Shown here piece by piece: positions 353 through 61,599 of a DNA stretch of 64,000 nt. A model generated the notes under the pieces. The model was not told where the DNA came from and did not search any database. It worked only from the letters and a program-made list of their open reading frames with translations. Both the position numbers and the translations under genes were made by a program. The stretch comes from Eledone cirrhosa (lineage: Eukaryota). Within the stretch, counting starts at the first letter, position 1, and each line of letters starts with the position of its first letter. The DNA lies in contig OZ024748.1 of NCBI GenBank assembly GCA_964016885.1, forward strand, positions 1,860,001 to 1,924,000. The letters run 5' to 3'.

Positions 353-997
353 AAGTGAACTTGCTAACCACACAGCACCTTTTTCACATATTAAGTTTAC
401 TGTGGAGATAATCTCATTATTTAAATATAAAATAACTCAGCCTTCATAACGATAATTAAACAATCAGATATTGGAAATATATCTATTATTTAGGGTGAAA
501 TAAATTGTGTACATCACATGAAGCTGAGATTTATGATACCAGACACTGTGCTTAATAATTATTTGGTTCTGAATTAATTTTTTAATGATTATTGATTGTT
601 ATTTAATGTTTAAAGGATTTGAATTCAGAATGCAAAGAGTTGAAGCAAATAATGCAAGGTATCTCATGTGCTCTAATTATTTTATCAATTCCCTGCTCTG
701 GACTGTTATCTAATTTTATCATACAGTTGACTTCAACTTAGAGCACATAGGACTTGAATAAATACAAGAAATTTTAATCTATGCTGTAACAACTCTGCTA
801 ATTCACTGCCTGTTAATAATCTTGTTATTGGAGTGTCATATGTATACAAGCTTTTAATTTTAGGTAAATGCTTATAGATACTTCTTTTATAACATGATAT
901 TGCAGGGATATATTTTTTTCTATGTCCAGGCCAAGCCACTATCGACAAGTTTCATAGGTTTGTTATCACTACTCAATTACACTGACTTGTCCTTGAT

Positions 998-2745: not shown

Positions 2746-3034
2746 GGGATTGTATGTCTGTTTGGCTGCATTTTCTTTCTACAATCTGTCCTCATTATGT
2801 GTGCTCTGGTTTTGAATTATATATATAAGATCGATTTGTTTGTCATGTCTGTATATGTGATAAACAAATAGAAAATTTCTTTTTTATCTTCTAGACACAT
2901 TTACACACATACACATATTTGCACACATACACATACACACTTTTGCACATATACACATACACACAAACATTTACACACTCTGTGTGCACCATCCTGGAGC
3001 AAAGAATTTGTCTTGTATCGTTTTATATATATAT

Positions 3035-3280
3035 GTATTAGAAAGTGAGGTTTTTTTACAAAATGAAAAATAACCGAGGTGTCCTACACGAGTGGAAGTA
3101 TAAAGAAAAAAAGATGAAATCGAAAATGCAACTGGAGTTTTATTTTAAAAAAAACATATATATTTATTTGGTTCCTTTACCGGTTTCGCAGTTCTTCTGC
3201 TTTTCAAAAGTAAAGGAACCAAATAAATATATATGTTTTTTTTAAAAATAAGACTCCAGTTGCATTTTCGATTTCATCTT

Positions 3281-3287
<7 letters not shown>
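3035..3287 (-). mobile_element. Fold-back Penelope-pLTR-like element with hammerhead in the loop
   Basis: Near-perfect inverted arms 3104-3180 / 3210-3287, unpaired tail 3035-3103, flanked by (TA)n and (CT)n(TA)n. Confidence 0.7.
3175..3210 (-). ncRNA. Minimal type I hammerhead ribozyme, U3-A8 core variant
   Basis: Minus strand: ctt UUGAAAA gcag-aagaa-ctgc GAAA ccgg UA aag. Perfect 4-bp stem II, palindromic stem III ACCGGU, GUA triplet. Confidence 0.65.
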
Positions 3288-3352
<65 letters not shown>

Positions 3353-4800: not shown

Positions 4801-4836
4801 TCTTCTGATGATGGACTAACATCCGAAATGTTAAGA
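4801..4836 (+). ncRNA. Decayed minimal hammerhead in a pLTR-like repeat (~4740-4935)
   Basis: tctt CTGATGA t ggac-taac-atcc GAAA tg TT aaga. Both defects are explained by CpG decay (cgtcc>catcc, aacgtt>aatgtt). Confidence 0.55.
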
Positions 4837-5666: not shown

Positions 5667-5861
5667 ATAGGAAAAAGTATGACCCCCGACGGCAGAGCTC
5701 AAGCCGTTTCGACGTCTATTTCTTGGTCCAGAAATAGCCGTCGAAACGGCTTGAGCTCTGCCGTCGGGGTCATACTTTTTCCTATTTCCCACTCTACTAC
5801 TCTAAGTATTGAGTACTCTGGTGCGTAATGGTCCATCTGTTTCCTTACCACATTTCCTTTG
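5667..5861 (+). mobile_element. Fold-back hammerhead-bearing element, family B (3' half of ribozyme)
   Basis: Inverted arms 5667-5723 / 5730-5785, then a ~76-nt tail. The right arm has GAAA cggc-ttgagctct-gccg TC gggg. Homologous to 46015-46147 and 9662-9952. TA tracts on both sides. Confidence 0.8.
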
Positions 5862-5886
5862 TATATATATGTGTGTGTGTGTGTGA

Positions 5887-7916: not shown

Positions 7917-8291
7917 ATCACCGTTTTATGTCCGTTTTTCCATGCTAGCATGGGTTAGACGGTTTGTCCTGTTGGGGGCAGTGTCAGGTCGGCTGACCTT
8001 GTCTTGCTCATAGAGGAACTGATTCTGGCTCGATTTCTACAGCTGGATGCCCTTCCTAACACCAACCTCATTTACAGTGAGTGCTAACTGCTTTTTTTCC
8101 GTGACACCTCTTTTGCATTGGAATGATAGGGACCCCAGTCCCTATCATCTCATTTCTACAGCTGAGTAAACTGGAGCAATGTGAAATAAAGTGTCTTGCT
8201 CAAGGAAACAACACATCACCCGGTCTGAGAATTGAACTCACAACCTTTCGATTGCACGGCCAATGCTCTAACCACTAAGCCATGTGCCTCC
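7917..8291 (-). mobile_element. Full-length tRNA-CORE SINE with RTE-derived 3' end
   Basis: Head at 8291 matches the 5887 SINE. Contains ggttggtgttaggaagggcatccagctgtagaaa and the ccatgctagcatgg tail shared with the RTE 3' UTR at 43206-43557. Confidence 0.85.
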
Positions 8292-8347
8292 AGCAGGTGT
8301 GTGGGTATATGTATATATGTGTTGTGTACATATGTGTGTGTGAGTTT

Positions 8348-8678: not shown

Positions 8679-9436
8679 CATAAATTCTATAAAATGCACA
8701 CAAGAGATGTAGTGGGATAGCAGGCAAGCTAACAGGTAGGGAGAAATACGTATGCAGTAGATGTACAGGGAAATTAGACAGTAGAAGTCGCATTGATAGA
8801 CACATTTTTCAAATGCAGGCGGGTGCTATAGAAGTGGTTGATAGCTTCAGTACCTAGGAGATCAGATTAGCATGGGAGGGGGGTGTTCTGAGGCCATAGT
8901 ATCTAGAATAAGGACGGGTTGGGAAGAAGTTTAGGGAGCTGCTTCCTCTGCTGACGAAGAAGGGTTTCTCCCTGCATATGAAAGGCCGGTTATATGATGC
9001 CTGTGTGAGGAGCACGATGCTGCATGGTAGTGAGACATGGGCAGCAACTGCAGAGGATATGCGACGGCTGGAGAGAAATGAGGCAAGCATGCTCCGTTGG
9101 ATGTGCAATGTCAATGTGTGTGAACGACCCAGCATGAATGTGTTGAGGGATAGAATGTAGTGTGAGAGAGAGGAGACTGAGGTGGTATGGACATGTGATG
9201 CGCATGGAGGATGACCGATGGGTGAAGAAGTGCCAGGACATGCCAGTTGAAGGAAAATGTGGTAGAGGTAGACCACGAAAAAAATGGGCGGAGGTGGTGA
9301 GAACAGACCTCAGATCGCTGAAGCTCATGGTGGAGATGACGAAGGACCGTGACAAGTGGAGAGATGCTGTGCTGAATAAGACCCGTCCCACCCTTGCAGG
9401 CAGGGAAGAGCAGACGTAAAATAATGATGATGATGA
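8678..9436 (+). mobile_element. Decayed RTE LINE 3' fragment (second subfamily, short 3' UTR)
   Basis: Translates to HKRCSGIAGKLT..CSRC, MKGRLYDACVRSTMLHGSETW and RRLRWYGHVMRM..GRGRPRKKW, with frameshifts and deletions; (GAT)n tail. Confidence 0.9.
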
Positions 9437-9661: not shown

Positions 9662-9952
9662 ATAGAACCAGTTTGAAACTGGTTGGACCATTACTTAAGA
9701 GAGTACTTGATACTTGGGGTAGTAGCATATGACTATATTATAAAGTGTCATGACCCTACGGCTGAGCTCTTGCCATACAACAGGTAGTTCCAGACTTGTT
9801 TGCCGAAAGGCTTCACATAAAATTTACCCTTATATGGACAAACCATATCCTCATTGACACAGCCAGTAAACCACGAAACCCTTCAGCAAACAGTCTGGAA
9901 GTAGCTGTTGAAATGGCAAGAGCTCAGTCTTTGGATCCCGATTCTTGGTAAT
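9662..9952 (-). mobile_element. Diverged family-B fold-back element
   Basis: 9675-9756 aligns to the reverse complement of the family-B tail (ggaccat..gagtact..gggtagtag..atgaccc). Imperfect inverted arms ~9737-9814 / 9875-9952. The plus arm has TTGAC..acagc/gctgtt GAAA tggc-aagagctca-gtc. Confidence 0.7.
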
Positions 9953-10001
9953 TTATATATATATATACCTAAATATATATGTATATATATGTATATGTGT
10001 G

Positions 10002-14104: not shown

Positions 14105-14675
14105 TGCAGAGGTTATATTTAATTTGTTGGGATTCAACAAGCTTAAACATTTTTATAACTGATATAAAGCACTCAACAATTAAGTGGAGTAAATACACAA
14201 TATATTAATAAAAGGAAGCTATATTTATAAAACCATATCTATTCTATTATACATATTTCAAGGGCAACCAAGGCAAATTATGGTGCGCTTTCATCAGATA
14301 AAATACAGATTTGTTTTATAAATATTGACATACCCGGAAAAAAGACAACCTTAACGGTTGGAGCTTCCTGGATAGTGGAGATAGTACATTTATTGAGGGT
14401 AATATAAAGTTATGAGTGAGTATGCAAATGAGTGTCCGAAAGGTTGAAAAGATAACGGTTTATTTAAATTAAACTGTTGGAAGAAGATGATTTGTAAGGG
14501 AGAGAGGAAAAAAAGAAAAAAAGAAAAAAGGAAGGAGAAAGATAGAAGAGGAAAGAAAGATTATATATATTGATAGTGAAAATAGAGTGCATGAAGAAAT
14601 AAGTTGCCCTTGAAATATGTATAATAAAATAAATATGGTTTTATAAATATAGTTTCCATTTATTAATATATTGTA
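14105..14675 (-). mobile_element. Fold-back pLTR-like element with hammerhead
   Basis: Inverted arms 14197-14268 / 14603-14674, tail 14105-14196, TA tracts on both sides. Confidence 0.7.
14240..14305 (-). ncRNA. Type I hammerhead ribozyme
   Basis: Minus: tattttat CUGAUGA aagcgca-cca..tgg-t-tgccctt GAAA tatgta UA atagaata. 8-bp stem I; stem III atatgtat is likely a CpG-decayed palindrome ATACGTAT. Confidence 0.75.
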
Positions 14676-14885
14676 TATATATATGTGTACATACACACAC
14701 ACATATATATACATATACACACACATACGCATACATATAAATATACAAGCACACCTCATACATATAAACACAGCACAGACACAAAAGAGTATATACATAC
14801 AAATACATATACACACGCACGCAGAAATGCATACAACCACATACACACATATAGTATAAAAATTTATTACATAACTATATATATC

Positions 14886-21381: not shown

Positions 21382-22400
21382 ACATCCGGCCTGGATGTTG
21401 TGGGACCAACATAACTGTACATTGAAAGGGGCGGTGTGGAGGTGGTGGGACGGGGGGGGGGTGTTTTGATAGAGATGCCTACTGACTGTAGTAGGTTTTT
21501 ACTTTGTATTTAGGTAAGGCGGGTCTTCTCTATTACTGAGTACCGCCAAAGGTCTCGGTCCAGTGACATTGTCTTGGAGAGGTGTAAGTGTGTGAGGTCG
21601 GAATTTATCAGCTCGTCCCATGTTTTTTCTGGGTCTGCCTACTCCGTGGCTACCGTCTATCTTTATTGCCCTGCACTTTGTTATACAGCTGTCGTCTTTC
21701 ATGCGCATCACGTGACCGTACCAACGTAGCCTTCTCTCGAGTAAACAACATCTGATCCCTCTTATTTCTAATTTTTTCCTTAGTTCGTTTATGCTTTGCC
21801 GTTCACGTATATTACTATTGCACATCCAGCGGAGCATGCAAGCTTCGTTCCTCTCTAGTCTGCGTATATCCTCTGCACACAATGCCCAGGTCTCACTGCC
21901 ATGCAGCATTGCTGTTCGTATGCAGGCATCGTATAACCTGCCTTTCATTTTTAGGGATAACCCTCTAGCGGCTAATAGTGGTATAAGCTCTCTGAACTTT
22001 TTCCATCCAGTTCTGACTCTAGCTACTGTACTCTCAGAGCACCCTCCCCCACTGCTGATTTTGTCACCCAGGTAACGGAAGCTGTCCACTATTTCTATAG
22101 AACCCTCTGCGCAGTTGAAGGAGCTAGTATTTTGTGGGCACTTGCTGCTACTTATTGCACCAGAGCACTGGCCACATGTAAAATCTATGTTCTTAGTTAG
22201 CTTACCTGTGATCCCACTACATCTTTTATGCACCCATACTTTGCATTTGGGACATAAAATGGAGTTTCTACCTACGCCTTTCCTACACACTGAGCATGGC
22301 CATTTCCCAGATGGGACTGCCGCCATATTTTCTTTCCTACAAACTAGAACTTTAGTCTTAGCCAGGTTAATTTTAAGGCCTTTTGATTCTAGGCCGTGCT
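21382..22400 (-). mobile_element. RTE LINE fragment (PHD finger to partial 3' UTR)
   Basis: ORF 21499-22326 is nearly identical to the C-terminal part of ORF 43558-45510, with a frameshift near 21620. Confidence 0.95.
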
Positions 22401-23143: not shown

Positions 23144-23280
23144 ATATTTATTAAAATAACAGATTAATCTGTTATTTTAATAAATATTTGCTCTACGGTT
23201 CTTATATATTTGATATATATTTATCCTTATCGAGCCCTCTTTGGATTTTAGTCTTCAAATTTATTATTATTACTAATATA
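23144..23280 (+). mobile_element. Short fold-back element (family F): 44-bp perfect palindrome + tail
   Basis: 23144-23187 is a perfect palindrome. The tail matches the reverse complement of 39104-39202. Confidence 0.75.
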
Positions 23281-26649: not shown

Positions 26650-27070
26650 GCTATGGCAGGATTTGAGTTCAGAACATCAATAGCTGAAACAAATACCACC
26701 AGGCATCCTGTTCAATGCTCTAACAATTCCACCAGTCCACTGCCCTAGACTGGTATTTTATTTATCAACCCCATGAAAGAATGATTAAAAGGTAAAGTTT
26801 ACCTCAGTGGGGTTTGAACTCAGAATGCAATGAGGCGTAACAAACCCTACAAGGCATCCCATCTGATACTTCAAGGATTCTGTCTGGCTACTGATTTAGG
26901 TTAATTCTTTACTTTATCCATTGGTTCCCTGGAAGAACGAAAGGCAAAGTTGACCTTGGTGGGGTTTGAACTCAGAAAGCAAGGAACCAGAACAAACACT
27001 GCAAGGCATTCTCCCTAATACTCTAAGGATTCTTCTGTCTGTCTATCGCTCTAGTCTAGTACTTTACTTT
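26650..27070 (-). mobile_element. Tandem array (~3 x 150 bp) of old tRNA SINE heads (Meta-domain-like family)
   Basis: Repeated gaaaggcaaagttgacct..ggggtttgaactcagaa..aaggcat..ctctaa.gattc. Confidence 0.65.
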
Positions 27071-27332
27071 ATGAATTGGTTCCTTGAAAAAAAATCGGAA
27101 TAAATGCTGTAAGGTTTTGCCATCTCTATGGTGATGATGATGATGGTGGTTATATATGACACTTTTACTGAATTCTTTCATGTATCAGCAGTAATTCTTA
27201 GAAAGTACTTTTAATGGTGAAGTTTAATGTTTTGGAAAACGGAAATATTACAAATCTCTTCTTGTTTTTCTTTTAAATCTACTTTTTACTTATTTACTTT
27301 CCCTGTGAATGACTTATCTTTTTCTAAATAAA

Positions 27333-30300
27333 TTGAAGGGTAAGGTGTCTCGTTGATCATATCTTGAGTAATATTGGAGGGCAAGGTGTCTTGTTGATCA
27401 TATCTTGAGTAATATTGGAGGGCAAGGTGTCTTGTTGATCATATCTTGAGTAATATTGGAGGGCAAGGTGTCTTGTTGATCATATCTTGAGTAATATTGG
27501 AGGGCAAGGTGTCTCGTTGATCATATCTTGAGTAATATTGGAGGGAAAGGTGTCTTGTTGATCATATCTTGAATAATATTGGAGGGCAAGGTGTCTCGTT
27601 GATCATATCTTGAGTAATATTGGAGGGAAAGGTGTCTTGTTGATCATATCTTGAGTAATATTGGAGGGAAAGGTGTCTTGTTGATCATATCTTGAATAAT
27701 ATTGGAGGGCAAGGTCTCTTGTTGATCATATCTTGAGTAATATTGGAGGGAAAGGTGTCTTGTTGATCATATCTTGAGTAATATTGGAGGGAAAGGTGTC
27801 TTGTTGATCATATCTTGAGTAATATTGGAGGGAAAGGTGTCTTGTTGATCATATCTTGAGTAATATTGGAGGGAAAGGTGTCTTGTTGATCATATCTTGA
27901 GTAATATTGGAGGGAAAGGTGTCTTGTTGATCATATCTTGAATAATATTGGAGGGCAAGGTCTCTTGTTGATCATATCTTGAGTAATATTGGAGGGAAAG
28001 GTCTCTTGTTGATCATATCTTGAGTAATATTGAAGAGTAAGGTGTCTTGTTGATCATATCTTGAGTAATATTGGAGGGAAAGGTCTCTTGTTGATCATAT
28101 CTTGAGTAATATTGGAGGGAAAGGTGTCTCGTTGATCATATCTTGAGTAATATTGGAGGGAAAGGTGTCTTGTTGATCATATCTTGAGTAATATTGGAGG
28201 GAAAGGTCTCTTGTTGATCATATCTTGAGTAATATTGGAGGGAAAGGTCTCTTGTTGATCATATCTTGAGTAATATTGAAGAGTAAGGTGTCTTGTTGAT
28301 CATATCTTGAGTAATATTGGAGGGAAAGGTCTCTTGTTGATCATATCTTGAGTAATATTGGAGGGAAAGGTGTCTCGTTGATCATATCTTGAGTAATATT
28401 GGAGGGAAAGGTCTCTTGTTGATCATATCTTGAGTAATATTGAAGAGTAAGGTGTCTTGTTGATCATATCTTGAGTAATATTGGAGGGAAAGGTCTCTTG
28501 TTGATCATATCTTGAGTAATATTGAAGAGTAAGGTGTCTTGTTGATCATATCTTGAGTAATATTGGAGGGAAAGGTCTCTTGTTGATCATATCTTGAGTA
28601 ATATTGAAGAGTAAGGTGTCTTGTTGATCATATCTTGAGTAATATTGGAGGGAAAGGTGTCTCGTTGATCATATCTTGAGTAATATTGGAGGGAAAGGTG
28701 TCTTGTTGATCATATCTTGAGTAATATTGGAGGGAAAGGTCTCTTGTTGATCATATCTTGAGTAATATTGGAGGGAAAGGTCTCTTGTTGATCATATCTT
28801 GAGTAATATTGGAGGGAAAGGTGTCTCGTTGATCATATCTTGAGTAATATTGGAGGGAAAGGTGTCTTGTTGATCATATCTTGAGTAATATTGGAGGGTA
28901 AGGTCTCTTGTTGATCATATCTTGAGTAATATTGGAGGGTAAGGTGTCTTGTTGATCATATCTTGAGTAATATTAGAGGGTAAGGTGTCTCGTTGATCAT
29001 ATCTTGAGTAATATTGGAGGGAAAGGTGTCTTGTTGATCATATCTTGAGTAATATTGAAGAGTAAGGTGTCTCGTTGATCATATCTTGAGTAATATTGGA
29101 GGGAAAGGTGTCTTGTTGATCATATCTTGAGTAATATTGAAGAGTAAGGTGTCTTGTTGATCATATCTTGAGTAATATTGGAGGGAAAGGTGTCTTGTTG
29201 ATCATATCTTGAGTAATATTGGAGGGAAAGGTGTCTTGTTGATCATATCTTGAGTAATATTGGAGGGAAAGGTGTCTTGTTGATCATATCTTGAGTAATA
29301 TTGGAGGGAAAGGTGTCTCGTTGATCATATCTTGAGTAATATTGGAGGGAAAGGTGTCTTGTTGATCATATCTTGAGTAATATTGGAGGGAAAGGTGTCT
29401 TGTTGATCATATCTTGAGTAATATTGGAGGGAAAGGTGTCTTGTTGATCATATCTTGAGTAATATTGGAGGGAAAGGTGTCTTGTTGATCATATCTTGAG
29501 TAATATTGGAGGTAAAGGTGTCTTGTTGATCATATCTTGAGTAATATTGGAGGGAAAGGTGTCTTGTTGATCATATCTTGAGTAATATTGGAAGGTAAGG
29601 TGTCTTGTTGATCATATCTTGAGTAATATTGGAGGGCAAGGTGTCTTGTTGATCATATCTTGAGTAATATTGGAGGGTAAGGTGTCTTGTTGATCATATC
29701 TTGAGTAATATTGGAGGGTAAGGACTCTTGTTGATCATATCTTGAGTAATATTGGAGGGAAAGGTGTCTTGTTGATCATATCTTGAGTAATATTGGAGGG
29801 CAAGGTGTCTTGTTGATCATATCTTGAGTAATATTGGAGGGCAAGGTGTCTTGTTGATCATATCTTGAGTAATATTGGAGGGCAAGGTGTCTTGTTGATC
29901 ATATCTTGAGTAATATTGGAGGGAAAGGTGTCTTGTTGATCATATCTTGAGTAATATTGGAGGGAAAGGTGTCTTGTTGATCATATCTTGAGTAATATTG
30001 GAGGGAAAGGTGTCTTGTTGATCATATCTTGAGTAATATTGGAGGGAAAGGTGTCTTGTTGATCATATCTTGAGTAATATTGGAGGGAAAGGTGTCTTGT
30101 TGATCATATCTTGAGTAATATTGGAGGGAAAGGTGTCTTGTTGATCATATCTTGAGTAATATTGGAGGGAAAGGTGTCTTGTTGATCATATCTTGAGTAA
30201 TATTGGAGGGAAAGGTGTCTTGTTGATCATATCTTGAGTAATATTGAAGAGTAAGGTGTCTCGTTGATCATATCTTGAGTAATATTGGAGGGAAAGGTGT

Positions 30301-31024
30301 CTTGTTGATCATATCTTGAGTAATATTGGAGGGAAAGGTGTCTTGTTGATCATATCTTGAGTAATATTGGAGGGAAAGGTGTCTTGTTGATCATATCTTG
30401 AGTAATATTGAAGGGCAAGGTGTCTTGTTGATCATATCTTGAGTAATATTGAAGAGTAAGGTGTCTTGTTGATCATATCTTGAGTAATATTGGAGGGTAA
30501 GGTGTCTTGTTGATCATATCTTGAGTAATATTGGAGGGTAAGGACTCTTGTTGATCATATCTTGAGTAATATTGGAGGGAAAGGTGTCTTGTTGATCATA
30601 TCTTGAGTAATATTGGAGGGAAAGGTCTCTTGTTGATCATATCTTGAGTAATATTGAAGAGTAAGGTGTCTTGTTGATCATATCTTGAGTAATATTGGAG
30701 GGAAAGGTGTCTTGTTGATCATATCTTGAGTAATATTGGAGGGTAAGGACTCTTGTTGATCATATCTTGAGTAATATTGAAGAGTAAGGTGTCTTGTTGA
30801 TCATATCTTGAGTAATATTGGAGGGAAAGGTGTCTTGTTGATCATATCTTGAGTAATATTGGAGGGCAAGGTGTCTTGTTGATCATATCTTGAGTAATAT
30901 TGGAGGGCAAGGTGTCTTGTTGATCATATCTTGAGTAATATTGAAGAGTAAGGTGTCTTGTTGATCATATCTTGAGTAATATTGAAGAGTAAGGTGTCTC
31001 GTTGATCATATCTTGAGTAATATT
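27333..31024. repeat. 41-bp minisatellite, ~90 copies
   Basis: Unit ggagggaaaggtgtcttgttgatcatatcttgagtaatatt, with a few recurring variants (ggagggc/t, gaagagt, ggtctc, ctcgtt). Confidence 0.98.
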
Positions 31025-34523: not shown

Positions 34524-36339
34524 TGAAGATCACAGATCATTTTGAGACAGGTGCCTTTTTGGTGTAATCAGTAGCACATATTTATTTATATGTATGTGTG
34601 TGTGTGTGTGAGAGAGATAGAGAGAGAGTGTGTGTGTGTGTGTATATAATATACATACAGAGTAAATTCTGTAATACCAGACTTCAACTTCTATGATGAG
34701 GGAGTGTGTGTTCCAAAGACATGTGTGTTCCCCATTCATAAATTCTGCCATCTTTATAGTGGCAAAGATGAATAGGGTGAACTTATGTCTTGCTTTGTAA
34801 CTTGTATATTGTTTGATATATCATAACTACTTTATTCACACTAATGTGATGTCACATATATATGTGTGTGTGTATAGTTTACGATCTACAAAATGGCCCA
34901 CTAACTACACATATTTCCCTGAAAAAAAATTATTCAATTTTCTTTCTTTTCTTACTCTTTCTTGTCTATCTTACTCTTTCTTCTTCTATCTCTCCTTATC
35001 TTCCAAGGAAGGACTTATTTTTGAAATATTAAGTCTCTTTTCCTATATCAAGCATTAAACAAATATATATCTTCATTGTATTATGCTATATTGTTCACAC
35101 TCCAGTTGTTTTTCTTTGTTGACTTTTCTCATAGATATAGTTTACATACATAGGAATACAATTTTGGTACAATGGAATAACTACTCTGTTTTAATTCCAG
35201 TTTCTTTTTCATTAAGCTTAGAGTGAATAAAACAAAACAATCTGTATATATAGCTTGTGTGCTACTGGTGAATGTATTTATGTTTATATAATATACATTT
35301 ATTGTAAGTTTTATCAATGGATTTGTCTTTATTTATCCCATTGTTTGTATACATTTAAACTCTAATTTCTACATTTTTATATGAATTGATTGAGTACTCT
35401 CATAAACTGAATCATGAAAATACATTTTACTATATTGTAAAATATCTATCAGTCTGTCTGTCTGCCTGTTTATCTATGTATCAATCTCTATTTGTCAATC
35501 TCCATCCATTCATCCATTGATTGATTGATTGATTCATTCATTGATTGATTGATTCATTCATTCATTCATTCACCCCTTCATTCTTCTGAGTGGATGGAGG
35601 TGATATGGAGTGTAGGGGATTCTTTGGTCTTGCAGTCAACATCTCTGGTGCTGGTAACATAAAAATTCCATTCAGTTTTTACTTCGTAGTAGTCAGTGTT
35701 AAACAAGCAAATTGATGGAATGAAGGAAAACAATATAGTGTAAAAGTAACTCCTTCCTTAATCTTGTGAGGAAATAACCTGTCTATTGTTCCTGACATGG
35801 AACATTAACCAAGCCCATGCTGTAAAGTAGAGTTATATAGAGAGCAGCCAGCCATTAAAAACAACAACACCCAAACCTCCTAAAAAAGAAGATACAGAAT
35901 TCTCCATGATAAAGATGGGGATGGAGTGGAAGTTGGGGTTTTCTGTTGTACACTCCAAATGAGGAGGATCATGGATTAGTGATGAGACCTGTCTAACCCA
36001 GGTCAGCATGGAAAAACAAAGTAAAATGATGATGATGCCATACACATGCTCTTTCTCATATATTCACATGTGTTCTTCCCCACACTCCCACACTCCCACA
36101 CGCACAAACACACAAACACACACACATACACACACATACACACATTTTCTATGCTCTCTTTCACACTTTCCCTCTCTCTCTCCATCTCTCTTCAAACTCT
36201 CCCTTCTCTAACATGTGTGTTTTTTATCCCCCACATCCCCCTCCTCCCTTAAATTCTTTCTTACTCTCCTCCTTCACTTAAATCTCTTACATATTTATAT
36301 CCCATCTCTCTCCAATGAACACATTCACTACTATTCTCA

Positions 36340-37699: not shown

Positions 37700-37937
37700 A
37701 AGCAGTTGTTGACCATAGCTGGATTTGAACTGAAGAATATCAACAATATTGGTTTCTAATTTTGACGACACGCGGCCAGAAAAGTTGGTGAAAGGGCAAA
37801 GTTGATTAAATCTACTCTAATACTTAACTGGTACTGTATTTTATTAACACCAGAAGGATAAAAGGCAAAGTTGACCTCAGTGGGATTTGAACATCAGAAT
37901 GTAAAGTTTTTACATTCTGAGTTCAAATCCCGCTGAG
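37700..37937 (-). mobile_element. Meta-domain-like SINE ending in a fold-back
   Basis: aggataaaaggcaaagttgacctcagtgggatttgaac..agaatgtaaa followed by its inverted copy tttacattctgagttcaaatcccgctgag. Confidence 0.7.
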
Positions 37938-39103: not shown

Positions 39104-39202
39104 TAGTAATAATAATAATAAATGCGAAGACTAAAATCCAAAGAGAGTTCGATAAGGATAAATATATATCAAATATATAAGAACCCTAGAGCAAATATTT
39201 AT
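39104..39202 (-). mobile_element. Second copy of the family F tail in (TA)n
   Basis: Reverse complement of 23181-23275 with few mismatches. Confidence 0.8.
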
Positions 39203-40109: not shown

Positions 40110-40615
40110 ATCATCGAGGTTACCTTTGCCTTTCATTCTTATGAGGCCGATAAAATAAAGCACCAGTAATGCACTGGGGTTGATTTAATCGAATTTCCCC
40201 TCCCTCCAAATTGCTGGCCTTGTGCCTATGTTAGAAATCATTATTATTACAGAATTGTGGATTGGCAGTATCGGTAGAGGGTTGGACACTATTCTTTGAT
40301 GTATAGAGTTACGGCCCTTGCCATTCTGAGTTCAAATCCCGTCGAGGTTAACTTTGCCTTTCATCCTTACAGGGATGAAAGTAAGTACCAGTAATGCTCT
40401 GGGTAATTGCTGGCCTTGTGCCAAACGTAGAAACAATTATTATTACAGAATTGGTAGAGCATCAGATGAAATGTTTTTTGCTGTATTTGTTCTGAGTTTA
40501 AATCCTGCTGAATCAACTATACTTTTCATTCTTGTGAGGTCGATTCTGGGGTCAGTATAATCGACTTTTCCCCTCTCCCCAAATTATTGGCCTTGTGTAT
40601 AAATTAGAAACCAAT
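40110..40615 (+). mobile_element. Three tandem Meta-domain-like tRNA SINE units
   Basis: Repeated ctgagttcaaatcc..gaggttaactttgcctttcatcct..gataaaataaag(t/c)accagt..ttgctggccttgtg..tagaaa. Confidence 0.75.
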
Positions 40616-40747: not shown

Positions 40748-41839
40748 CATGCATATATATTCTGAGTTTAACATCAGAAGTACTGTTGCTCCACAATCAT
40801 AGCTATCAGCTACCAGATGTGGTGGTCTGTAATCAAAATTAGGGATCTAATGACAAAGGGTAACGTAGATGTTGAGGACTTTGGTCTGAGGTTGAACATA
40901 GCAATATTTATGACTCTTGTTTATTAATACAGCCCTGTAAATGGAAACCGGAAATGAACCATCGATTGATCTGGTTTCAACTGGCTGTCCAATATTTTAT
41001 TAACTTTGCCAGCTGTGACACTATAAACCAATTGCTGAACAGTTATTGTCAGTTTTTGTATGCAAAAAATAAAAAATAAAAAAAAGATCAATAACGAGGG
41101 TGGTGGTGAAATTAATATTGTCAGTAGTATATTAAGATGGGTTTAGAACTTTATTGAAATAGAAGTTAATTAAATATTGGTTTTAGCAATTTATTGGGAT
41201 TTTTTAAAATAACTTTTATTTATTTTTAATTTTAATTTTTATTTATTTATTTATTTGAAGAAAGGCCAAATATAATTGGTAATATGCTGTATAACATACA
41301 ATCATGGATAAACAAATGTGAAAACATTGATGGATTTTGTTTATATGTTCTATATTAAGGTTTTATCTTTTTTTCATGCAGCCTCTCTAATGTATGATAG
41401 TTTCAAATATCTGGATATATTTATTATAATTTTTAATTTACTCATTATAGTTGAATGTTGATTTTTCCATTAACTGGTTGCTCCACAATGGTGACACCCA
41501 TGATGACAGTTATTTTTTATATCTTGGCCATTTATTAATTTCTTGTGCTTCAGTTAATAGGTAGCTAAGGCCTTGAAAGTTTTGTGATATACTGTTGAAG
41601 GAGAAATAGGTGTGTAATATTATTGTGTTAGAAGTAGGTGTGTGGTATTGTAGAGGTAGCACTATTGTATTGCTGAGGTAGAAGTGGCAAATTAGCAAAT
41701 TGTTGAGGTAGATGTAGGATTAATAAAGATTATAATTGTTTTTATATTTGTTACAGGAGTGGCAAATAATTCTATGTTGATCTAAAAAGCTGTGACTAAA
41801 TATCACAAGGAATTTTGTCAATATTAAAGAAATAATAAT

Positions 41840-42030
41840 TGTTTCTACATTTGTCACAAGGCCAGCAATTTGAGAGAAGGGGAAATTCAGTGTATTACTG
41901 ATACTTTATTGTATTGATCCCATAAGGATGAAAGGCAAAGCTAACCTTGGCAGGATTTGTCCTCAGAATGTAAAAAGACGTAACTATATGCTGCAAAGCA
42001 TATAGTCCAATGCTCTATCGATATGGCTAA
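41840..42030 (-). mobile_element. Meta-domain-like SINE
   Basis: aaggatgaaaggcaaagctaaccttggcaggattt..ctcagaatgtaaa. Confidence 0.7.
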
Positions 42031-42654
42031 TCCAATAATAATAATCACTTCTGATGTTTTGCCATCATCGCCTATTCATACAGACAACAAAATATTACAA
42101 AGGATGTTACAAACATATCTGGGGGATGATATAAAGTTTATTTTGTTTCAAACATTTGGGTATGGTTTCAAGTTTGAGGATATCTTTCAAAAATTCAGCC
42201 CACCAGTCTTGGAAACCCTGGTTAGAGTCATAGGCACTTCACTTCCTGTTGTCAAAGCAATATAAATAGAAAAAGTAATGCCATAAGTAAATAGATAAAA
42301 GCAAACACAATTGTCCTTGTTTTAAGGTTAATTCTTATTGTTTTACTGGTGAAGATTTAATCAGTAATATTGCCAGTATTTAAGTAAAGCCCTTTTTAAA
42401 AGAAAAACAAAGGCAATAAATACATAGATAACAACAAAGCAGCTATTAAATACATAAAAACACATCAATTTACTTGAATAATATGTTAAAATGTTGGTTT
42501 GCTAGGAAGGAACATGGATTTGATTAACAAGAGGATAAATAGATGTGCTGGAATAAAAAAAAAAAGTTTAATATAATTGCACTAGAAATTTATTAAAGCA
42601 AATATTGGATTGACAACTTAACATAGTCCACAATTTTCTATTTTTCTTTCTTTC

Positions 42655-43205: not shown

Positions 43206-45518
43206 ATCATCATCATCATCATCAACGTTTAACGTCCGTGTTCCACGCTTGCATGGGTTTGGACGGGGGTAGTCCCACTTGAGGCAAGAGTGATTGTCTT
43301 GCTCGCATAGGACTGTCTGGCAGGTTTTCTACAGTTGGATGCCCTTCCTAACACCAACCACATTTACAGTGTGGGTCTGGGAGGTTTTTACCGTGTTGCC
43401 TACACGGCCACATTACAGCGTGGACTGTGTGTTTTTTTGTCGTGACACCTACACGATCTCATTTGTTTCGGCCTGGATGGCGCGGCACCAACATAACTTT
43501 ACATAGAACGGGGTGGTGTGGATGGGGTGGGGGTGGCGGCGGGAGGGGTGTATTTTGTTAGAGATGCCTACTGGCAAGGCGGGTCTTCTCTGTTACTGAG
43601 TACCGCCAAAGGTCACGGTCCAGTGACATTGTCTTGGAGAGGTGTAAGTGTGTGAGGTCGGAGTTTATCAGCTCATCCCATGTTTTTCTAGGTCTGCCTA
43701 TTCCGTGGCTACCGTCTATCTTTATTGCCCTGCACTTTGTAATACAGCTATCGACTTTCATGCGCATCACGTGTCCATACCAACGCAGCCTTCTCTCGAG
43801 TAAACAACATCTGATCCCTCTTATCTCTAATTTTTTCCTTAGTTCGTTTATGCTTTGCCGTTCACGTATATTACTGTTACACATCCAGCGGAGCATGCAA
43901 GCTTCGTTCCTCTCTAGTCTGCGTATATCCTCTGCACACAATGCCCAGGTCTCACTACCATGCAACATTGCTGTTCGTATGCAGGCATCGTACAACCTGC
44001 CTTTCATTTTTAGGGAGAACCCTTTAGCAGCTAATAGTGGTATAAGCTCTCTGAACTTTTTCCAACCAGTTCTGACTCTAGCTACAGTACTTTCAGAGCA
44101 CCCTCCCCCACTGCTGATTTTATCGCCCAGGTAACGGAAGCTGTCCACTATTTCTATAAAACCCTCTGCGCAATTGAAAGAGCTAGTATTTTGTGGGCAC
44201 TTGCTGCTACTTATTGCACCAGAACACCGGCCACATGTAAAGTCTATGTTCTTAGTTAGCTTACCTGTGATCCCACTACATCTTTTATGCACCCATACTT
44301 TGCATTTAGGACATAAGATGGAGTTTCTACCTACGCCTTTCCTACATACCGAGCACGACCATTTCCCAGAAGGGACCGCCGCCTTGTTTTCTTTCCTACA
44401 AACTAGAACTTTGGTCTTAGCCAGGTTAATTTTAAGTCCTTTTGACTCTAGGCCGTGCTTCCATGTTTGGAATTTCTTCTCTAGCTCGGCCATTGATTCC
44501 GCTATGAGTGTCAGGTCGTCTGCGTATAGGAGTTCCCATGGGCAGCCTGTCTTGAACTCCTCTGTTATAGCCTGAAGGGCAATAATAAATAGTAGGGGGC
44601 TGAGAACAGAGCCCTGATGGACGCCAACTTTTACGCTAAACTCTTCACTATATTCGTTGTTAATTCTAACCTTGCTGACTGTTTCTTTATACATGGCTTG
44701 TATAGCCCTCACAAGCCATTCGTCAACGCCTAGTTTTCTAAGAGCCCACCAGATAATGGAGCGGGGGACTCTGTCGAAGGCTTTCTCCAGGTCGACAAAA
44801 GCTAAGTAGAGGGGTTTACCTTTAGCTAGGTACTTCTCCTGTAGTTGTCGTACTATGAAAAGAGCGTCTGTGGTGCTTTTGCCTGACACAAACCCGAACT
44901 GCATTTCATCTAGATCAATTCTCTCTCTGATTAGTTGCGCTATTACTTTTTCCGTGACCTTCATGACCTGGTCGATTAATTTAATGCCTCTATAGTTACT
45001 CCTATCTAGGGCGTCTCCTGTACCCTTATAACAGTTAACGATGATGCTGCTATGCCAGTCCTTCGGAACAACCCCATTCTGTACGACTTGGTTAACTATG
45101 CGGGTGACCATGGTGTGTCCCACCGTGCCAGATGCCTTCAGCATCTCAGCAACTATTTCCGAAGGCCCAGCCGCCTTACCAGTCTTCATATCCTTGATTG
45201 CCTTACTTATTATACTCCCCTCGACTAACACTGCTGGTCCCTCTATCGGGTCGATATGGGGGAGACTGTCTTTCTCCCATTTATTCTCCTCATTTAGTAG
45301 CCTTTCATAGTGACACTTCCAAGCTACCTTCTTATCAGTGTCGGTGATGGCAAGTATGCCATCATCGTTAAGTACACACTTCTCCCCGACAATATCACGG
45401 TTTTCCTTGACGCATTGCCTGGCAATCCTGAACACCTCACGTTTTTGGTCATCGCGTTGTAGAACATGCTTGAACTTTCTTTCCTCAGCTTCCCTTCTTG
45501 CTAAGTACACTTCTCTCC

Positions 45519-45520
<2 letters not shown>
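43206..45520 (-). mobile_element. Young 5'-truncated RTE-clade LINE in (TA)n
   Basis: Uninterrupted RT ORF, ~350-nt 3' UTR, (GAT)n tail, TA tracts on both sides; lacks the APE endonuclease. Confidence 0.97.
43558..45519 (-). CDS. RTE reverse transcriptase (5'-truncated) with inserted PHD-type zinc finger
   Basis: NYRGIKL, QFGF, FVDLEKAFDRV, QGSVLSPLLF, YADD, GLKINLAKTK, FRYLG, RRLRWYGHVMRM, GRPRKTW. C4HC3 finger at 44224-44355. The listed start is GTG at the truncation point, not a real initiator. Confidence 0.95.
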
Positions 45521-45550
<30 letters not shown>

Positions 45551-45552
<2 letters not shown>

Positions 45553-46147
45553 GGAGAGAGAGTATGACCCTGTAGAACAATAGGGGTGTGAGTGGAGCGG
45601 TCAAGCTTTGAAAGTGATAACAGCAGATTCTAAGGATAGTGTATGAGGAGGGAGGTTATAGAATAGGTAAATCGAATTTTTTTTTTTTTTTTTTTTCTAT
45701 TATCTTTTATTATCTCCTACTCTCATTTGATTTACCTATTCTATAACCTCCCTCCTCCACTTTATACACTATCCTTAGAATCTGCTGTATACATATGACT
45801 TTCAATGTTTGACCACCGCTCCACTCACTCCCCTATTGTTCTACAGGCAAGTTCAGCCACCCCTACCTCCCACCAAATGCCATGATAGACTTATTTGTGT
45901 TTACAACAAATTTTAACCAATCCTCTTGACAACTACAATCTTCCCATATAAGGAAGTACCCCCTTGACAAGTTCGGCTATTTATTCACCAGGCTAAAAAT
46001 TCTAATTTAGTCCACAAATAGCCGTCGAGGCGGCTTGAGTTCTGCCGTCGGGGTCATACTTTTGCCTATTTCCCACTCTACTACCCTATGTATTGAGTAC
46101 TCTGATGCGTTATGGTCCATCTGGTTCCTTACCACAATTCCTTTGTT
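45551..46147 (+). mobile_element. Longest family-B fold-back element
   Basis: Starts taggagagagagtatgaccc (inverse of 46051-46069). Inverted arms ~45569-45673 / 45729-45847, then the hammerhead and the same tail as 5786-5861. Confidence 0.8.
45960..46053 (+). ncRNA. Hammerhead with U3-A8 core, extended stem II and full stem III (GAAA mutated in this copy)
   Basis: cccc UUGACAA g-tt-cggctattt..[ggctaaa/tttagtc hairpin]..aaatagccg-t-c GAGG cggc-ttgagttct-gccg UC gggg. The sister copy at 5743-5746 has GAAA. Confidence 0.65.
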
Positions 46148-46185
46148 ATATATGTATATATATATATATGTATATATGTATATAT

Positions 46186-46515
46186 ATCATCATCATCATC
46201 ATTTTACGTCCGCTTTTCCCTGCTTGCAAGGGTGGGACGGCAACTGATTCTGGCTTGATTTCTACAGCTGGATGCCCTTCTTAACACCAACCTCATTTAC
46301 AGTGAGTGCTGGGTGCTTTTTTGCCGTGGCACCTGCACGACCACTTTGTAGTGGAATGATATGGACCCCAGTCCCTATCATCTCATTTCTACAGCTGAGT
46401 AAACTGGAGCAATGTGAAATAAAGTGTCTTGCTCAAGGAAACAACACATCACCCGGTCTGAGAATTGAACTTCGATTGCAAGGCCAATGCTCTAACCACT
46501 AAGCCATGTGCCTCC
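46186..46515 (-). mobile_element. Full-length tRNA-CORE SINE with type-2 RTE tail
   Basis: Head and core are nearly identical to 8130-8291; the tail cccacccttgcaagcagggaaaagcggacgtaaaa(TGA)n matches the RTE end at 9385-9436. Confidence 0.9.
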
Positions 46516-46522
46516 ATATATG

Positions 46523-54981: not shown

Positions 54982-55879
54982 TATGTCTCATACCAGACAA
55001 TAGCTTACAATATATTATATAACAGACTACAGCTGACTATATGTCATATACCAGACTACAGCTGACTATATGTCATATACCAGACTACAGCTGACTGTCA
55101 TATACCAGACTACAGCTGATTGTCATATACCAGACTACAGCTGATTGTCATATACCAGACTACAGCTGATTGTCATATACCAGACTACAGCTGATTGTCA
55201 TATACCAGACTACAGCTGACTGTCATATACCAGACTACAGCTGACTGTCATATACCAGACTACAGCTGATTGTCATATACCAGACTACAGCTGACTATAT
55301 GTCATATACCAGACTACAGCTGACGATATGTCATATACCAGACTACAGCTGACGATATGTCATATACCAGACTACAGCTGACGATATGTCATATACCAGA
55401 CTACAGCTGACGATATGTCATATACCAGACTACAGCTGACGATATGTCATATACCAGACTACAGCTGACGATATGTCATATACCAGACTACAGCTGACGA
55501 TATGTCATATACCAGACTACAGCTGACGATATGTCATATACCAGACTACAGCTGACGATATGTCATATACCAGACTACAGCTGACGATATGTCATATACC
55601 AGACTACAGCTGACTATATGTCATATACCAGACTACAGCTGACTATATGTCATATACCAGACTACAGCTGACTATATGTCATATACCAGACTACAGCTGA
55701 CTATATGTCATATACCAGACTACAGCTGACTATATGTCATATACCAGACTACAGCTGACTATATGTCATATACCAGACTACAGCTGACTATATGTCATAT
55801 ACCAGACTACAGCTGACTATATGTCATATACCAGACTACAGCTGACTATATGTCATATACCAGACTACAGCTGACTATG
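54982..55879. repeat. 29-bp minisatellite (~31 copies) with 25-bp deletion variant
   Basis: Unit atgtcatataccagactacagctgactat; variants arranged in blocks. Confidence 0.97.
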
Positions 55880-56564
55880 TTACATTTACGAGACTACTGT
55901 ATTTATGTTTAGTATGCAGAATGTTCCCCTGAGGTATTTTCCATCAGCCATATTGTTGATAAGAAGTTTCATCTAATCCAAAGAGTTTATTTTCCTCAGT
56001 CTGCTGTGTATCAATTACTTATTCAAAACAGAACCAGAAAGAACTCATATATATAATTGGCTATGGTGTGTAGGTGTGTGGTGGTGTGTGTGTATGTGTG
56101 TCTACGTGAGAGAAATAGATTGTATGTGTGTGTGTGTGTGCACGTGAGAGAGAGAGAAGAGATATAGATGTGTGTATGTGAGAGAGAGAGAGATGTATAT
56201 ATATATATGTATATATAGAGAGAGAGATCGGACCAATAAGACAGAAGCTGCTAGTGAAATGCTGTTAATGGAAGAGAAGAGCATTAGAGAAGGAATGTAG
56301 TAACTAATGAGAAATAAATATTAAGGGATAATAAAATTGTTATTGAGCTAGGAGAGGGGGAGAGATATGTATAACAACGTTTGTAAGGTTGTTATGTTTA
56401 CATGTTGTTTTTTAACCAATTAACTGTCTGTTTGAAACCCAATCAGTAACGGTTAACTGAACCTCATCATACATTTATTTATTTTATTAGTCTGTCACAG
56501 TTGTAATTACATTTTCATTCCGTTTAAGATATTATAATAATAATAATGATAATAGTAATAATAA

Positions 56565-56740
56565 TGGTTTTTGGAAATTTTTGAGAGAGGCGAAAGTCGA
56601 TTAAATCGACCCCAGTCCATTATTGGTGCTTTGTTTTATCGACCCCGTAAGGATGAAAGGCAAAGTTAACTTTAGTGGGATTTGTACTCAGAATGTAAAG
56701 GCCATAACAATATGCTGCAAAGTATGTTGACTGATATTCT
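56565..56740 (-). mobile_element. Meta-domain-like SINE
   Basis: ttttatcgaccccgtaaggatgaaaggcaaagttaac..gggatttgtactcagaatgtaaag. Confidence 0.75.
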
Positions 56741-56759
56741 ATAGTGACCTCAAGAGCCC

Positions 56760-57560
56760 AAGATATTGGGAACAATATAAGGACAAAAACAATTCAGAGT
56801 AGGTTTACACCGAGTAAAGGAAAGGGGACAGAACTGAAGAGAAAATAGTAGGAATAACAAGAACAAATGTCAACAAGAACAAGTTCCTCAATAGTAGGGA
56901 GAATTGCACTTTAGAGTAATTCCAGGGTGAAACCTGGGCTACTTGAAAGTGCCCTTACTCAGTTTCTTTCCCCCTACTTAGAAAAGTGTAGAGTTTGGCC
57001 CATTCAGCCTCATCAATCTCATTGCTCTCACCCATCTTTCATAAGGCAGCCCCTCCCTCTCTACCCTCTACTCCCTCTTCACATGGAACTTGAAGATGTT
57101 GATGAGGCCCAGTGATTCCTGTCATCAATCATTTTAGGCAAGTCCGCAACACAGCTTCCTTTGCCATAGCTACCAGACAGAGGAAGACTTGCTATGCCCC
57201 CCCCCCCCCGCCGTTCACTGTAGACCCAGCTGATAGTAGGATCTCTCCTTCACATAATAGCAATAGCTTGATACAGGCCCACAACTGTTCAATGCACGGG
57301 CAATTGGTGATAGCATGCAAGATGGCTTCATCGCCCTGCATACATTTCAGAGAAGTCTGGCTGATGGCACTTCCATGCCTGTAGAGCTTGTCTTGAATTT
57401 GTAGAGCTCCTCTGTAGAACTGCCATACCAAGGGTTTTTGAAAATTGTCCATAATCCCTGACCTGAACGTCCTCCAGAAGAGCCTCTTCTGTCTGTCCTT
57501 GTCAATGCTCAGAGATTCTCCCAGACCATCATCGCTCATACTAACCTTCTATAGAAGATT
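56760..57560 (-). mobile_element. Decayed L1/Tx1-type LINE 3' fragment
   Basis: W..YRGAL...DKL.RHG...S..(C)..C...DE...HA...C...LW resembles the C-terminal zinc-knuckle (zf-RVT) region; T-rich 3' UTR on the minus strand. Confidence 0.7.
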
Positions 57561-58689: not shown

Positions 58690-58840
58690 GTAGCGGTAGC
58701 AAAATGAGTAGAGTTGTTAAAATGCTTTATGGCATTCGTTCTGACTCTCTGCTCTCTGAGTTCAAATCCTGCTGAGGTCAATTTTACCTTTCATCCCTTT
58801 GTGGTCGATAAAATAAGCACCAGTATAGTACTGGAGTATT
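58690..58840 (+). mobile_element. Meta-domain-like SINE
   Basis: ctgagttcaaatcctgctgaggtcaattttacctttcatccctttgtggtcgataaaataagcaccagt. Confidence 0.75.
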
Positions 58841-59320
58841 TACTTCTCTATATCTCCTTTTCACTTTCTCTTGACTTCTCTTGAAGAAATTAGTTATGTT
58901 CAGACCTGGAGAAAGGATGAGTTCCACCAGGACCTGATATATGTCACTACAGCATCCCCATGACTCCATCATATATTGGAATGGATCTTGTCCATAATGA
59001 TAATGTACATTAGTATAGATTTGATGAAAGCAATTAAATGTTCATCTTGCTTGAGAATTACAAAATATCATGATACATATTATAATTCCTTTATTGTCAC
59101 TGTTATTCTGATATAACATTAACTGAGAAACTTAGTAAACCAATGAATTCTGAGAAGTTTATAGCACAATATGGCTGCTACAACTGGAATCTGAGTTTAA
59201 ATATGATTAATTTTGAAGAAGAGATGGGCATTGAATTTAACACTTGCTGAAAACCCAACCAGTAAGCCAAGCATTGCTATCAGCTTAATATTGCTGTCTT
59301 TAATGGAAAATAAATGCACA

Positions 59321-60509: not shown

Positions 60510-61599
60510 GTTATTCCGCTCTAATAACTTATGTTCCAGTTATCTAAATACTTTCTCCGTCAAACCACAATATCTATAAACTATTATGTTATATAGCAAA
60601 ATAGTTTGAATCTGAAGAGGAGATAATGAAATATAATCATGTATCTGTGTTTTGTTGTATGTATTCTTTGTAATATTTTTTTATACATACATGTATTTAT
60701 GTCTAGTTGTATTTACATATGCATCCATTTATGTGCATGTGTGTATGAAGTATCATTGGATGCAGATAAAATTATGGTTCTAAAACTTTCCCCAAAGTTT
60801 GCTGTGTATAATCAGGTCAGTAACATTATTGATCTTATCAGATATAGAAACATTATTTACTTAGATGGGATGGAAATCACATTATGATTGTAAACACTCC
60901 AACAATAATAGCCCTAAGAATATGTATAATATTAACTCTCCTTCCCCATTCATAGATTTTATGACAAGAAACATATATTGTTTGACATGAAAAGAATTTG
61001 TTCCATCAGCTTTCTCTTCAACAAAATGGTCAGCATGCCACCTTATACTGAAACTAACATAAAGGCAGAATTCACATTAGCTAGATTTGAATTTTGTAAC
61101 ATGATTTCAGAATACATTAATCAACAAAAAATGAGGAAGACCTTTCACCTCAACATTGGCAATAAAAGTAGGTTGACTAACTTAACAAAATAGATTAAAG
61201 ATATGGTAATTGTATACTTTCCTATGTTTTCCTACTGATAAGTCTGGTGGGATGTATTTGTAAACAGCCTGTCAAAATTATATCAATAGCATGCAACTGT
61301 ACATTAAAGATACAAGTGATGTGGCTTCATTTAATATATGAAAATAATGAGAGACTTCTAAATACTCATATGAGAATGTAGGGTAGCATCTTATAGTGGA
61401 AGGAATCAATAACAATTGACTTCCAAATAAGAAATAAGGATGTCTAAACTAGGTAAAGTGACTCCAGTATTTAACTAGGGTTTTATTTTATCGACCCAAG
61501 AAGGAAGAAAAGAAAAATTGACCTCAGGGTATTATGTGCTCAATCAGAGTTGACTTGGGGTTAAACAACATTAATGACCCTAGTGTAAATGGCTTGTAT

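Follow-up and report, generated by a model that had tools for sequence, protein, structure and literature searches.

The exchange of the C3-G8 pair of the hammerhead core for U3-A8 is not novel, as it has already been published for natural hammerheads (2011) and for Penelope-like elements (PLEs; 2014). Perreault et al. 2011 (PMC3088659) reported natural covariation to U3-A8 in several ribozymes and cited earlier in vitro activity. Cervera and De la Pena 2014 (PMC4209133) found U3-A8 in about 1,300 hammerheads of the Schistosoma Cercyon PLE and described Schistosoma PLE hammerhead pairs on opposite strands, with palindromic stems III and low activity as dimers; the paper also states that evidence for in vivo cleavage by PLE hammerheads is lacking. 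As to the architecture of insertions, Craig et al. 2021 (PMC8557442) described an inverted 5'-truncated copy by the 5' end of PLEs, an optional tail and (TA)n targets, and Arkhipova et al. 2013 (PMC3846280) described head-to-head inverted pseudo-LTRs (pLTRs) with an overlap, as well as 5' junctions with microhomology. For the Anolis element PAc Poseidon, Frangieh et al. 2024 (PMC11167929) reported two start sites of reverse transcription and showed that AT-rich DNA is cut on both strands and that both are extended. Background on hammerhead dimers and on retrozymes comes from PMC6765202, PMC7229834 and bioRxiv 10.64898/2026.07.22.740005. A literature search for cephalopod PLE hammerheads, in which most subscription papers were outside the scope, found no report.

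The window, that is the whole 64-kb stretch of DNA analysed here, is animal-type DNA that is rich in A and T and in microsatellites and contains LINE and SINE-like copies; its SINE features look cephalopod-like. One locus in it is, in our view, quite likely an insertion scar left by a member of an abundant PLE family, or by a non-autonomous derivative, with a type I hammerhead of the dimer type in its terminal repeat and U3-A8 as the fixed pair of the core. Membership in the PLEs is suggested by the architecture of the scar; catalytic activity and the formation of this locus from two cDNAs are our inference.

Sequence inspection and pattern scans revealed a type I hammerhead motif on the minus strand (3207-3178, or 3175-3210 with the proximal part of stem I). 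The core U3-U4-G5-A6-A7-A8-A9 (UUGAAAA) occupies 3207-3201, and the Watson-Crick 3-8 pair required of type I hammerheads is present as U3-A8 (3207/3202). Stem II follows with four Watson-Crick pairs (3200-3197 with 3191-3188) around a 5-nt loop and is closed by G10.1-C11.1; G12-A13-A14 (GAA) lies at 3187-3185 and the 6-nt palindrome ACCGGU, which would form stem III, at 3184-3179. H17 is A (3178), giving a GUA triplet with a predicted cut between 3178 and 3177, and three proximal pairs of stem I join 3210-3208 to 3175-3177. All conserved core positions expected of a hammerhead are found: U4 G5 A6 (3206-3204), A9 (3201), G12 A13 A14, A15.1-U16.1 (3184/3179) and a non-G H17; the short palindromic stem III is that of the minimal PLE-type hammerhead, which is formed only by a dimer. 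The initial annotation had described the UUGAAAA core, the perfect stem II, the palindromic stem III and the GUA triplet on the minus strand accurately. An extra base between A9 and 10.1 and a stem II of 6-8 bp, both typical of such hammerheads (PMC4209133) although outside the descriptor, are absent from the motif, where stem II has 3-4 bp.

The Cercyon PLE hammerheads of Schistosoma mansoni (PMC4209133) resemble this motif in type I topology, U3-A8, G10.1-C11.1 and a short stem I, as well as in a palindromic and unstable stem III that needs a dimer. They are, as here, mostly single motifs in truncated copies, with some opposite-strand pairs. They differ in having a stem II of 7-8 bp and the extra base between A9 and 10.1 (PMC4209133), and the 6-nt stem III palindrome found here resembles the Drosophila, rotifer and shrimp variants described in the same paper, unlike Cercyon. 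The animal host is different too, and no ORF has been linked to the window repeat. The U3-A8 hammerheads of Perreault et al. (PMC3088659) share the same compensatory 3-8 swap, whereas the window motif lies at the end of an animal retroelement, with a palindromic stem III and a predicted dimer requirement. PAc Poseidon (PMC11167929) has a C3-G8 core and an ORF starting at stem II, in contrast to the U3-A8 of the window repeat.

A strict descriptor of the motif matched once in the window and never in 60 block-wise dinucleotide shuffles; this result overstates the significance, because the descriptor was composed after the motif had been seen, and it was narrow enough to miss three C3-G8 motifs caught by looser scans. 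The motif does not reach the Rfam gathering threshold (HH9, 14.5 bits versus 52, E 0.21, in an 81-nt stretch). The HH9 model was built for longer, tertiary-stabilised hammerhead forms, and the shortfall therefore lowers only the likelihood that the motif is an HH9. For the window as a whole, no hammerhead is among the 150 listed of 275 Rfam matches, and the miRNA matches stem from hairpins and microsatellites. Pattern scans of the 64 kb found no second intact U3-A8 hammerhead, and the 'family B' of the initial annotation could not be assigned to a place with certainty. Beyond the window, pattern scans gave no match in viral contigs, one in metagenome contigs (L001) and one in prokaryote genomes (L002). 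The metagenome match (925-953, minus strand) is a C3-G8 hammerhead-like motif with the same 3-bp base of stem II and the ACCGGU palindrome and lacks a clear stem I; it shows no homology to this repeat past a 12-nt motif match and was not counted as covariation. The prokaryote match was rejected as chance, as it lies within a 179-codon bacterial ORF and its stem II fails past three pairs.

Copies of the repeat were surveyed in four of 17 listed public sequencing runs, none on record as RNA, with 2975-3232 as the query, at 80% likeness and with differences counted from 3%. The four runs were X1 (6,643 contigs) and X15 (3,156 reads), from different samples of one organism, X4 (12 contigs), from a second organism, and X5 (10 contigs), from a third. 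X1 is possibly the source of the window itself and therefore not independent. Coverage in the runs is limited to 3024-3212, which marks this interval (minus strand) as the end of a very abundant repeat; we regard it as the 3' end of a very high-copy family and probably a PLE pseudo-LTR. At 3024 the family 3' end enters (TA)n-like letters in all four runs, and that of the main copy in the window likewise enters (TA)n. An alternative 3' end at 3099, about 75 nt away, also enters (TA)n-like letters and is listed for three of them (56 cases in X1, one each in X4 and X5). On the other side, the main copy in the window is 5'-truncated 2-5 nt upstream of U3, and the native flank past 3210-3212 is unlike the window in all four runs (416 reads in X15, 80 cases in X1, two in X4 and one in X5). 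The family is heterogeneous, with 1,204 of the 3,156 X15 reads less than 90% alike, and the repeat body adjoining the motif varies widely in the X4 and X5 contigs. Nevertheless, one X4 contig (depth 36.6) is identical to the window over 3167-3212, and over 3152-3210 an X5 contig differs at one position, which lies outside the motif. Judged by these aligned copies, the repeat family is common to at least three organisms, and the conservation of the core across so large and variable a family is stronger evidence for the motif than the shuffles. One rearranged X1 contig was also seen, with breakpoints at 3183 and 3167 and 37 inverted letters resembling the native upstream flank between its pieces.

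The same copies bear on whether U3-A8 is a variant or a product of decay. A copy with C3 would show A>G at 3207, and one with G8 would show T>C at 3202. Among the X1 contigs, the four A>G places and the single T>C place fall at 3104, 3106, 3111, 3112 and 3139, and in X4 and X5 the two A>G places and one T>C place fall at 3111, 3112 and 3139. Since all of them lie elsewhere, C3 and G8 each occur in less than 3% of the copies in X1, X4 and X5, and the core as a whole is invariant at the 3% level in these three runs. In X15, five A>G and three T>C places are among 32 outside those listed, and C3 or G8 could occur there at a few percent. Variation within the motif was found instead at the fourth pair of stem II, next to the loop (3197), which is disrupted in 46% of the reads of X15 and in 12% of the depth of X1, at the CpG of 3188, where C11.1 is U and forms a G-U pair in 24% of X15 reads, and at the CpG of 3182, variable in 10% of X15 reads. 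U3-A8 is thus the family norm and a real family-level variant, as the initial annotation had proposed, and the finding that would have spoken against it, canonical C3-G8 in other copies, was not made in X1, X4 and X5. The covariation of positions 3 and 8 that had also been envisaged is absent, both positions being fixed as U-A within the family. From the letters of the motifs, the 3-8 contrast lies between families, as the three other hammerhead-like motifs of the window carry C3-G8.

The hammerhead fills the 29-nt loop (3181-3209) of a hairpin. Its left arm (3104-3180) is part of the main copy and contains the GUA triplet together with the 3' strand of stem I, while its right arm (3210-3287, plus strand) is an inverted, 5'-truncated second copy placed head to head with the first. 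The arms, of 77 nt and 78 nt, match in 76 of 78 columns, with one mismatch and one gap, and the arm downstream of the motif starts at G16.2 of the GUA triplet, so that the near-perfect inverted arms around the hammerhead were seen correctly from the outset. The right arm ends about 5 nt short of the equivalent of the alternative family 3' end at 3099 and enters a (CT)n(TA)n microsatellite (3288-3349), which is the probable target site and obscures any target-site duplication. Over 3128-3208, the body of the repeat reaches a depth of 0.5-2.0 million in X1 and about 1,000-1,900 in X15; over 3218-3232, in the right arm, the depth is 18.4 and 0-0.67, respectively. The right arm is thus at single-locus depth, and the hairpin belongs to this locus and not to the family. 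The same depth led us to reject the hairpin as a regulatory or evolved device. A miRNA or MITE reading was rejected as well, since the arms are duplicates of the 3' part of the element itself and run out into a microsatellite.

Predicted folds point to different fates of the motif with and without the arm. For a monomer without the arm, pair probabilities are 0.72-0.77 in stem II and about 0.04 in stem I. For two copies, the unconstrained two-strand minimum (-19.1 kcal/mol) is the dimer hammerhead, in which 6 bp between the two molecules make up stem III. In a read-through RNA that contains both arms, the cleavage triplet is paired with a probability above 0.99, and the hammerhead can be imposed only at a cost of 14.6 kcal/mol; the sequestration of the triplet by the inverted arm, suggested earlier, is thus borne out in the predicted fold, and with its triplet buried in this way the hairpin copy is probably inert. 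The native flank taken from the runs, compared by eye, adds 3 bp to stem I after a 2-nt bulge, a part that the window copy has lost. The minus strand also carries a donor-like G|GU at 3181/3180, within stem III, as well as an acceptor-like AG at 3084 that is accompanied by a pyrimidine tract. By consensus match, an intron of roughly 97 nt could remove the cleavage triplet, and splicing and self-cleavage could then be mutually exclusive; no joint matching this putative intron is listed in the four runs, none of them on record as RNA.

The scar shares several features with endonuclease-bearing PLE units (PMC8557442, PMC3846280): the 5' truncation, the head-to-head inverted copy with a short overlap at the junction, the tail at one end, the hammerhead near the 3' end and the (TA)n targets. 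Here the predicted cut site in the terminal repeat lies 153 nt from the 3024 end, the adjacent inverted 5'-truncated copy is that of 3210-3287, at single-locus depth, and the two 3' ends, at 3024 and 3099, with their AT-rich surroundings, correspond to the optional tail and the (TA)n targets. Compared with those units the scar is very short, 264 nt in all, and an ORF and a target-site duplication were not seen; the two 3' ends are spaced by about 75 nt, as against 30-40 nt for the published PLE tails (PMC8557442, PMC3846280). No ORF for a PLE reverse transcriptase or GIY-YIG domain was found among the 157 window ORFs scanned with Pfam (7 + 150 of 207, those left out being mostly ones that overlap LINE/SINE copies or had been scanned before), and the copy itself is truncated at 3212. 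Two start sites and action on both strands, as in PAc (PMC11167929), would account for the two 3' ends together with the head-to-head pair.

The following course of events would give rise to the scar. In a source element, tandem terminal repeats within one transcript would pair their palindromic stems III, yielding a hammerhead made of two copies; with U3-A8 in place of the C3-G8 core pair, it may cleave after GUA, slowly and perhaps with the help of a protein. At this locus, the element's endonuclease would have cut the AT-rich microsatellite, and two cDNAs would have been started from the family 3' start points, one at 3024 and one at about 3099-3103. One of them would have stopped just beyond the hammerhead core and the other at stem III or at the cut site, and the two would have been joined head to head via a 3-nt overlap, with the hairpin as a by-product. 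The overlap lies at 3210-3212, with loose ends behind 3212; its letters can be read as native flank of the main copy or as the first letters of the inverted arm. Because of it, four starting points are open to the arm: G16.2, U16.1, A17 or N1.1. Self-cleavage would produce a 5' end at N1.1; an arm beginning at G16.2 would reflect ordinary 3-nt microhomology and a template that had not been cut.

The window contains other hammerhead-like motifs and inverted repeats. A second head-to-head hammerhead pair with a C3-G8 core was found by pattern scans at 14190-14681; the motif itself is at 14297-14248 (minus strand) and its inverted copy at 14603-14681 is 92% alike and ends in (TA)n. Two further C3-G8 type I hammerhead-like motifs, at 4805 (plus strand) and 13389 (minus strand), are unrelated in sequence and have an extra base after A9; neither has an inverted partner within 600 nt, and the sequence 3' of the 4805 motif is repeated at 35023-35127. 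Hairpins or inverted pairs beside (TA)n occur at 5667-5785, 45569-45847, 9734-9955 and 23144-23187, and pattern scans found no intact hammerhead in them; one of these places may be the 'family B' of the initial annotation. The stretch 5723-5868 is repeated at 46007-46153, and the perfect 44-nt palindrome at 23144 has a flank that is repeated at 39126-39192. Among the 157 ORFs scanned with Pfam, only two kinds of match were above the cut-off, neither PLE-like by its domains nor near 3175-3210. One is a 680-codon stop-free frame at 43558-45600 (minus strand) whose RVT_1 domain is split by a PHD finger and of which fragments occur at 21387-22399 and 8807-9206; the other, a zf-RVT match at 57195-57548 (minus strand, E 2e-7), is the 3' part of another LINE. 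The 3' end of the RVT_1 and PHD element has an internal tandem duplication in one copy, and its (ATG)n tail is common to a SINE with a tRNA-like head (8017-8292, 46242-46516), which suggests, at the level of sequence, a LINE-SINE partnership. Tandem arrays with a 41-nt period (91 registers) and a period of about 58 nt lie at about 27300-31000 and 54982-55897. Copies of a dispersed and diverged SINE-like family, some of them tandem or inverted, were seen at 26749-27092, 37779-37906, 40114-40453, 41831-42052, 56574-56741, 58755-58842 and 61461-61527.

Other explanations have been proposed for the motif, for the repeat and for the hairpin, and they differ in how well they agree with these data. 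That the motif is a chance match in a hairpin loop, or a C3-G8 hammerhead decayed by two mutations, is very improbable. Its Rfam score is far under the threshold, and the prokaryote match inside a bacterial ORF illustrates that hammerhead-like strings arise by chance in large collections; however, the core is identical in contigs of three organisms with C3 and G8 rare in three runs, the shuffles gave no match, and the core positions, G10.1-C11.1, the palindrome and stem I are all in register. In the version in which the two changes are private to this copy, the decay reading is refuted by the family copies in X1, X4 and X5. The nature of the repeat is a separate matter. It could be a non-LTR retrozyme, a short non-coding tandem unit amplified through circular RNA, and not the end of a coding PLE. 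Like the repeat, animal non-LTR retrozymes are high-copy and non-coding with type I hammerheads that need a dimer, and they have been proposed to derive from PLE pLTRs (bioRxiv 10.64898/2026.07.22.740005, PMC7229834); the copy number is very high here too, and the 189 nt of 3024-3212 showed no frame beginning with ATG. We nonetheless consider a retrozyme unlikely. Animal retrozymes form head-to-tail arrays (PMC7229834, bioRxiv 10.64898/2026.07.22.740005), whereas the window holds no tandem or second direct copy of this unit, and the defined 3' ends in (TA)n with an inverted partner are PLE features. In addition, one X1 contig continues for 628 letters past the 3212 end, in a part not listed as a matching stretch, which exceeds a typical monomer.

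The hairpin may also have arisen in another way than by the joining of two cDNAs. In a fold-back route, 3210-3212 at the end of a single cDNA would have paired 29 nt away and primed the copying of about 75 nt, or the arm would have been made by repair at the DNA level; we regard this as a possible, albeit less favoured, origin, and it leaves the ribozyme reading unchanged, as only the origin of the hairpin differs. The overlap consists of exactly the letters that fold-back requires, the arms are nearly identical in spite of the heterogeneity of the family, and self-priming was proposed for inverted PLE junctions in PMC3846280. Near identity is, however, also expected if one source transcript gave both cDNAs, and the outer end of the arm, about 5 nt from the recurrent 3' end at 3099, is predicted by independent priming and not by fold-back. 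This favours separately primed cDNAs, although not decisively. The two-cDNA route has in turn a variant that concerns cleavage, in which the second cDNA ran off a hammerhead-cleaved RNA (N1.1, the equivalent of 3177) and was joined bluntly to the first at 3212. The overlap permits an arm start at N1.1, and the only opposite-strand joint listed, 3180/3212 in X15 (63 reads with one start), comes either from this locus or from another event no more than 3 nt away. Among the 12 X4 contigs, two have their ends at 3178 and 3180, but they differ from the window at 6-7 of 36-39 AT-rich letters, which is close to chance. On the other side, microhomology joining or fold-back priming leaves the same 3-nt overlap without cleavage, in which case the arm passes the cut by 3 nt and the template was uncut. 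At the cut site, X1 and X15 each lose only about 4% of their depth (bin 3173-3181 compared with bin 3182-3190), X15 still has 86% of its depth at 3200-3208, and no place where many molecules begin or end is listed in the run data. The second hammerhead pair of the window has its junction at 14268 and its H17 20 nt further downstream, at 14248, so that one of two pairs fits. Moreover, the one PLE tested inserted without need of hammerhead cleavage, with no RNA reads ending at the site (PMC11167929). We therefore think it doubtful that the arm ends at the ribozyme cut. The early suggestion that the inversion point reflects the 5' end of a cleaved RNA thus keeps weak support at best, the overlap allowing the fit and microhomology fitting equally well, and the accompanying idea that junctions cluster at the cut site found no backing, with neither a pile-up of ends nor agreement from the other pair.

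Read as a PLE-type insertion scar, the locus adds to the known cases one clean head-to-head Penelope-type scar and a further animal repeat family, abundant and present in at least three organisms, in which the U3-A8 hammerhead is fixed; it is otherwise an ordinary example. If the arm does end at the cut, the scar would record in vivo cleavage by a U3-A8 hammerhead. A broader proposal, for which we see slightly less chance still, is that head-to-head junctions of the family preferentially start at N1.1 and form a genomic fossil record of in vivo U3-A8 self-cleavage; a literature search, again with most subscription papers outside its scope, found no report of PLE inversion junctions at a hammerhead cut site. 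A pile-up of junctions there would raise the importance of the family, because in vivo evidence of PLE hammerhead cleavage is lacking, and a preference for N1.1 would answer the question of whether the template RNA is in fact cut by PLE hammerheads.
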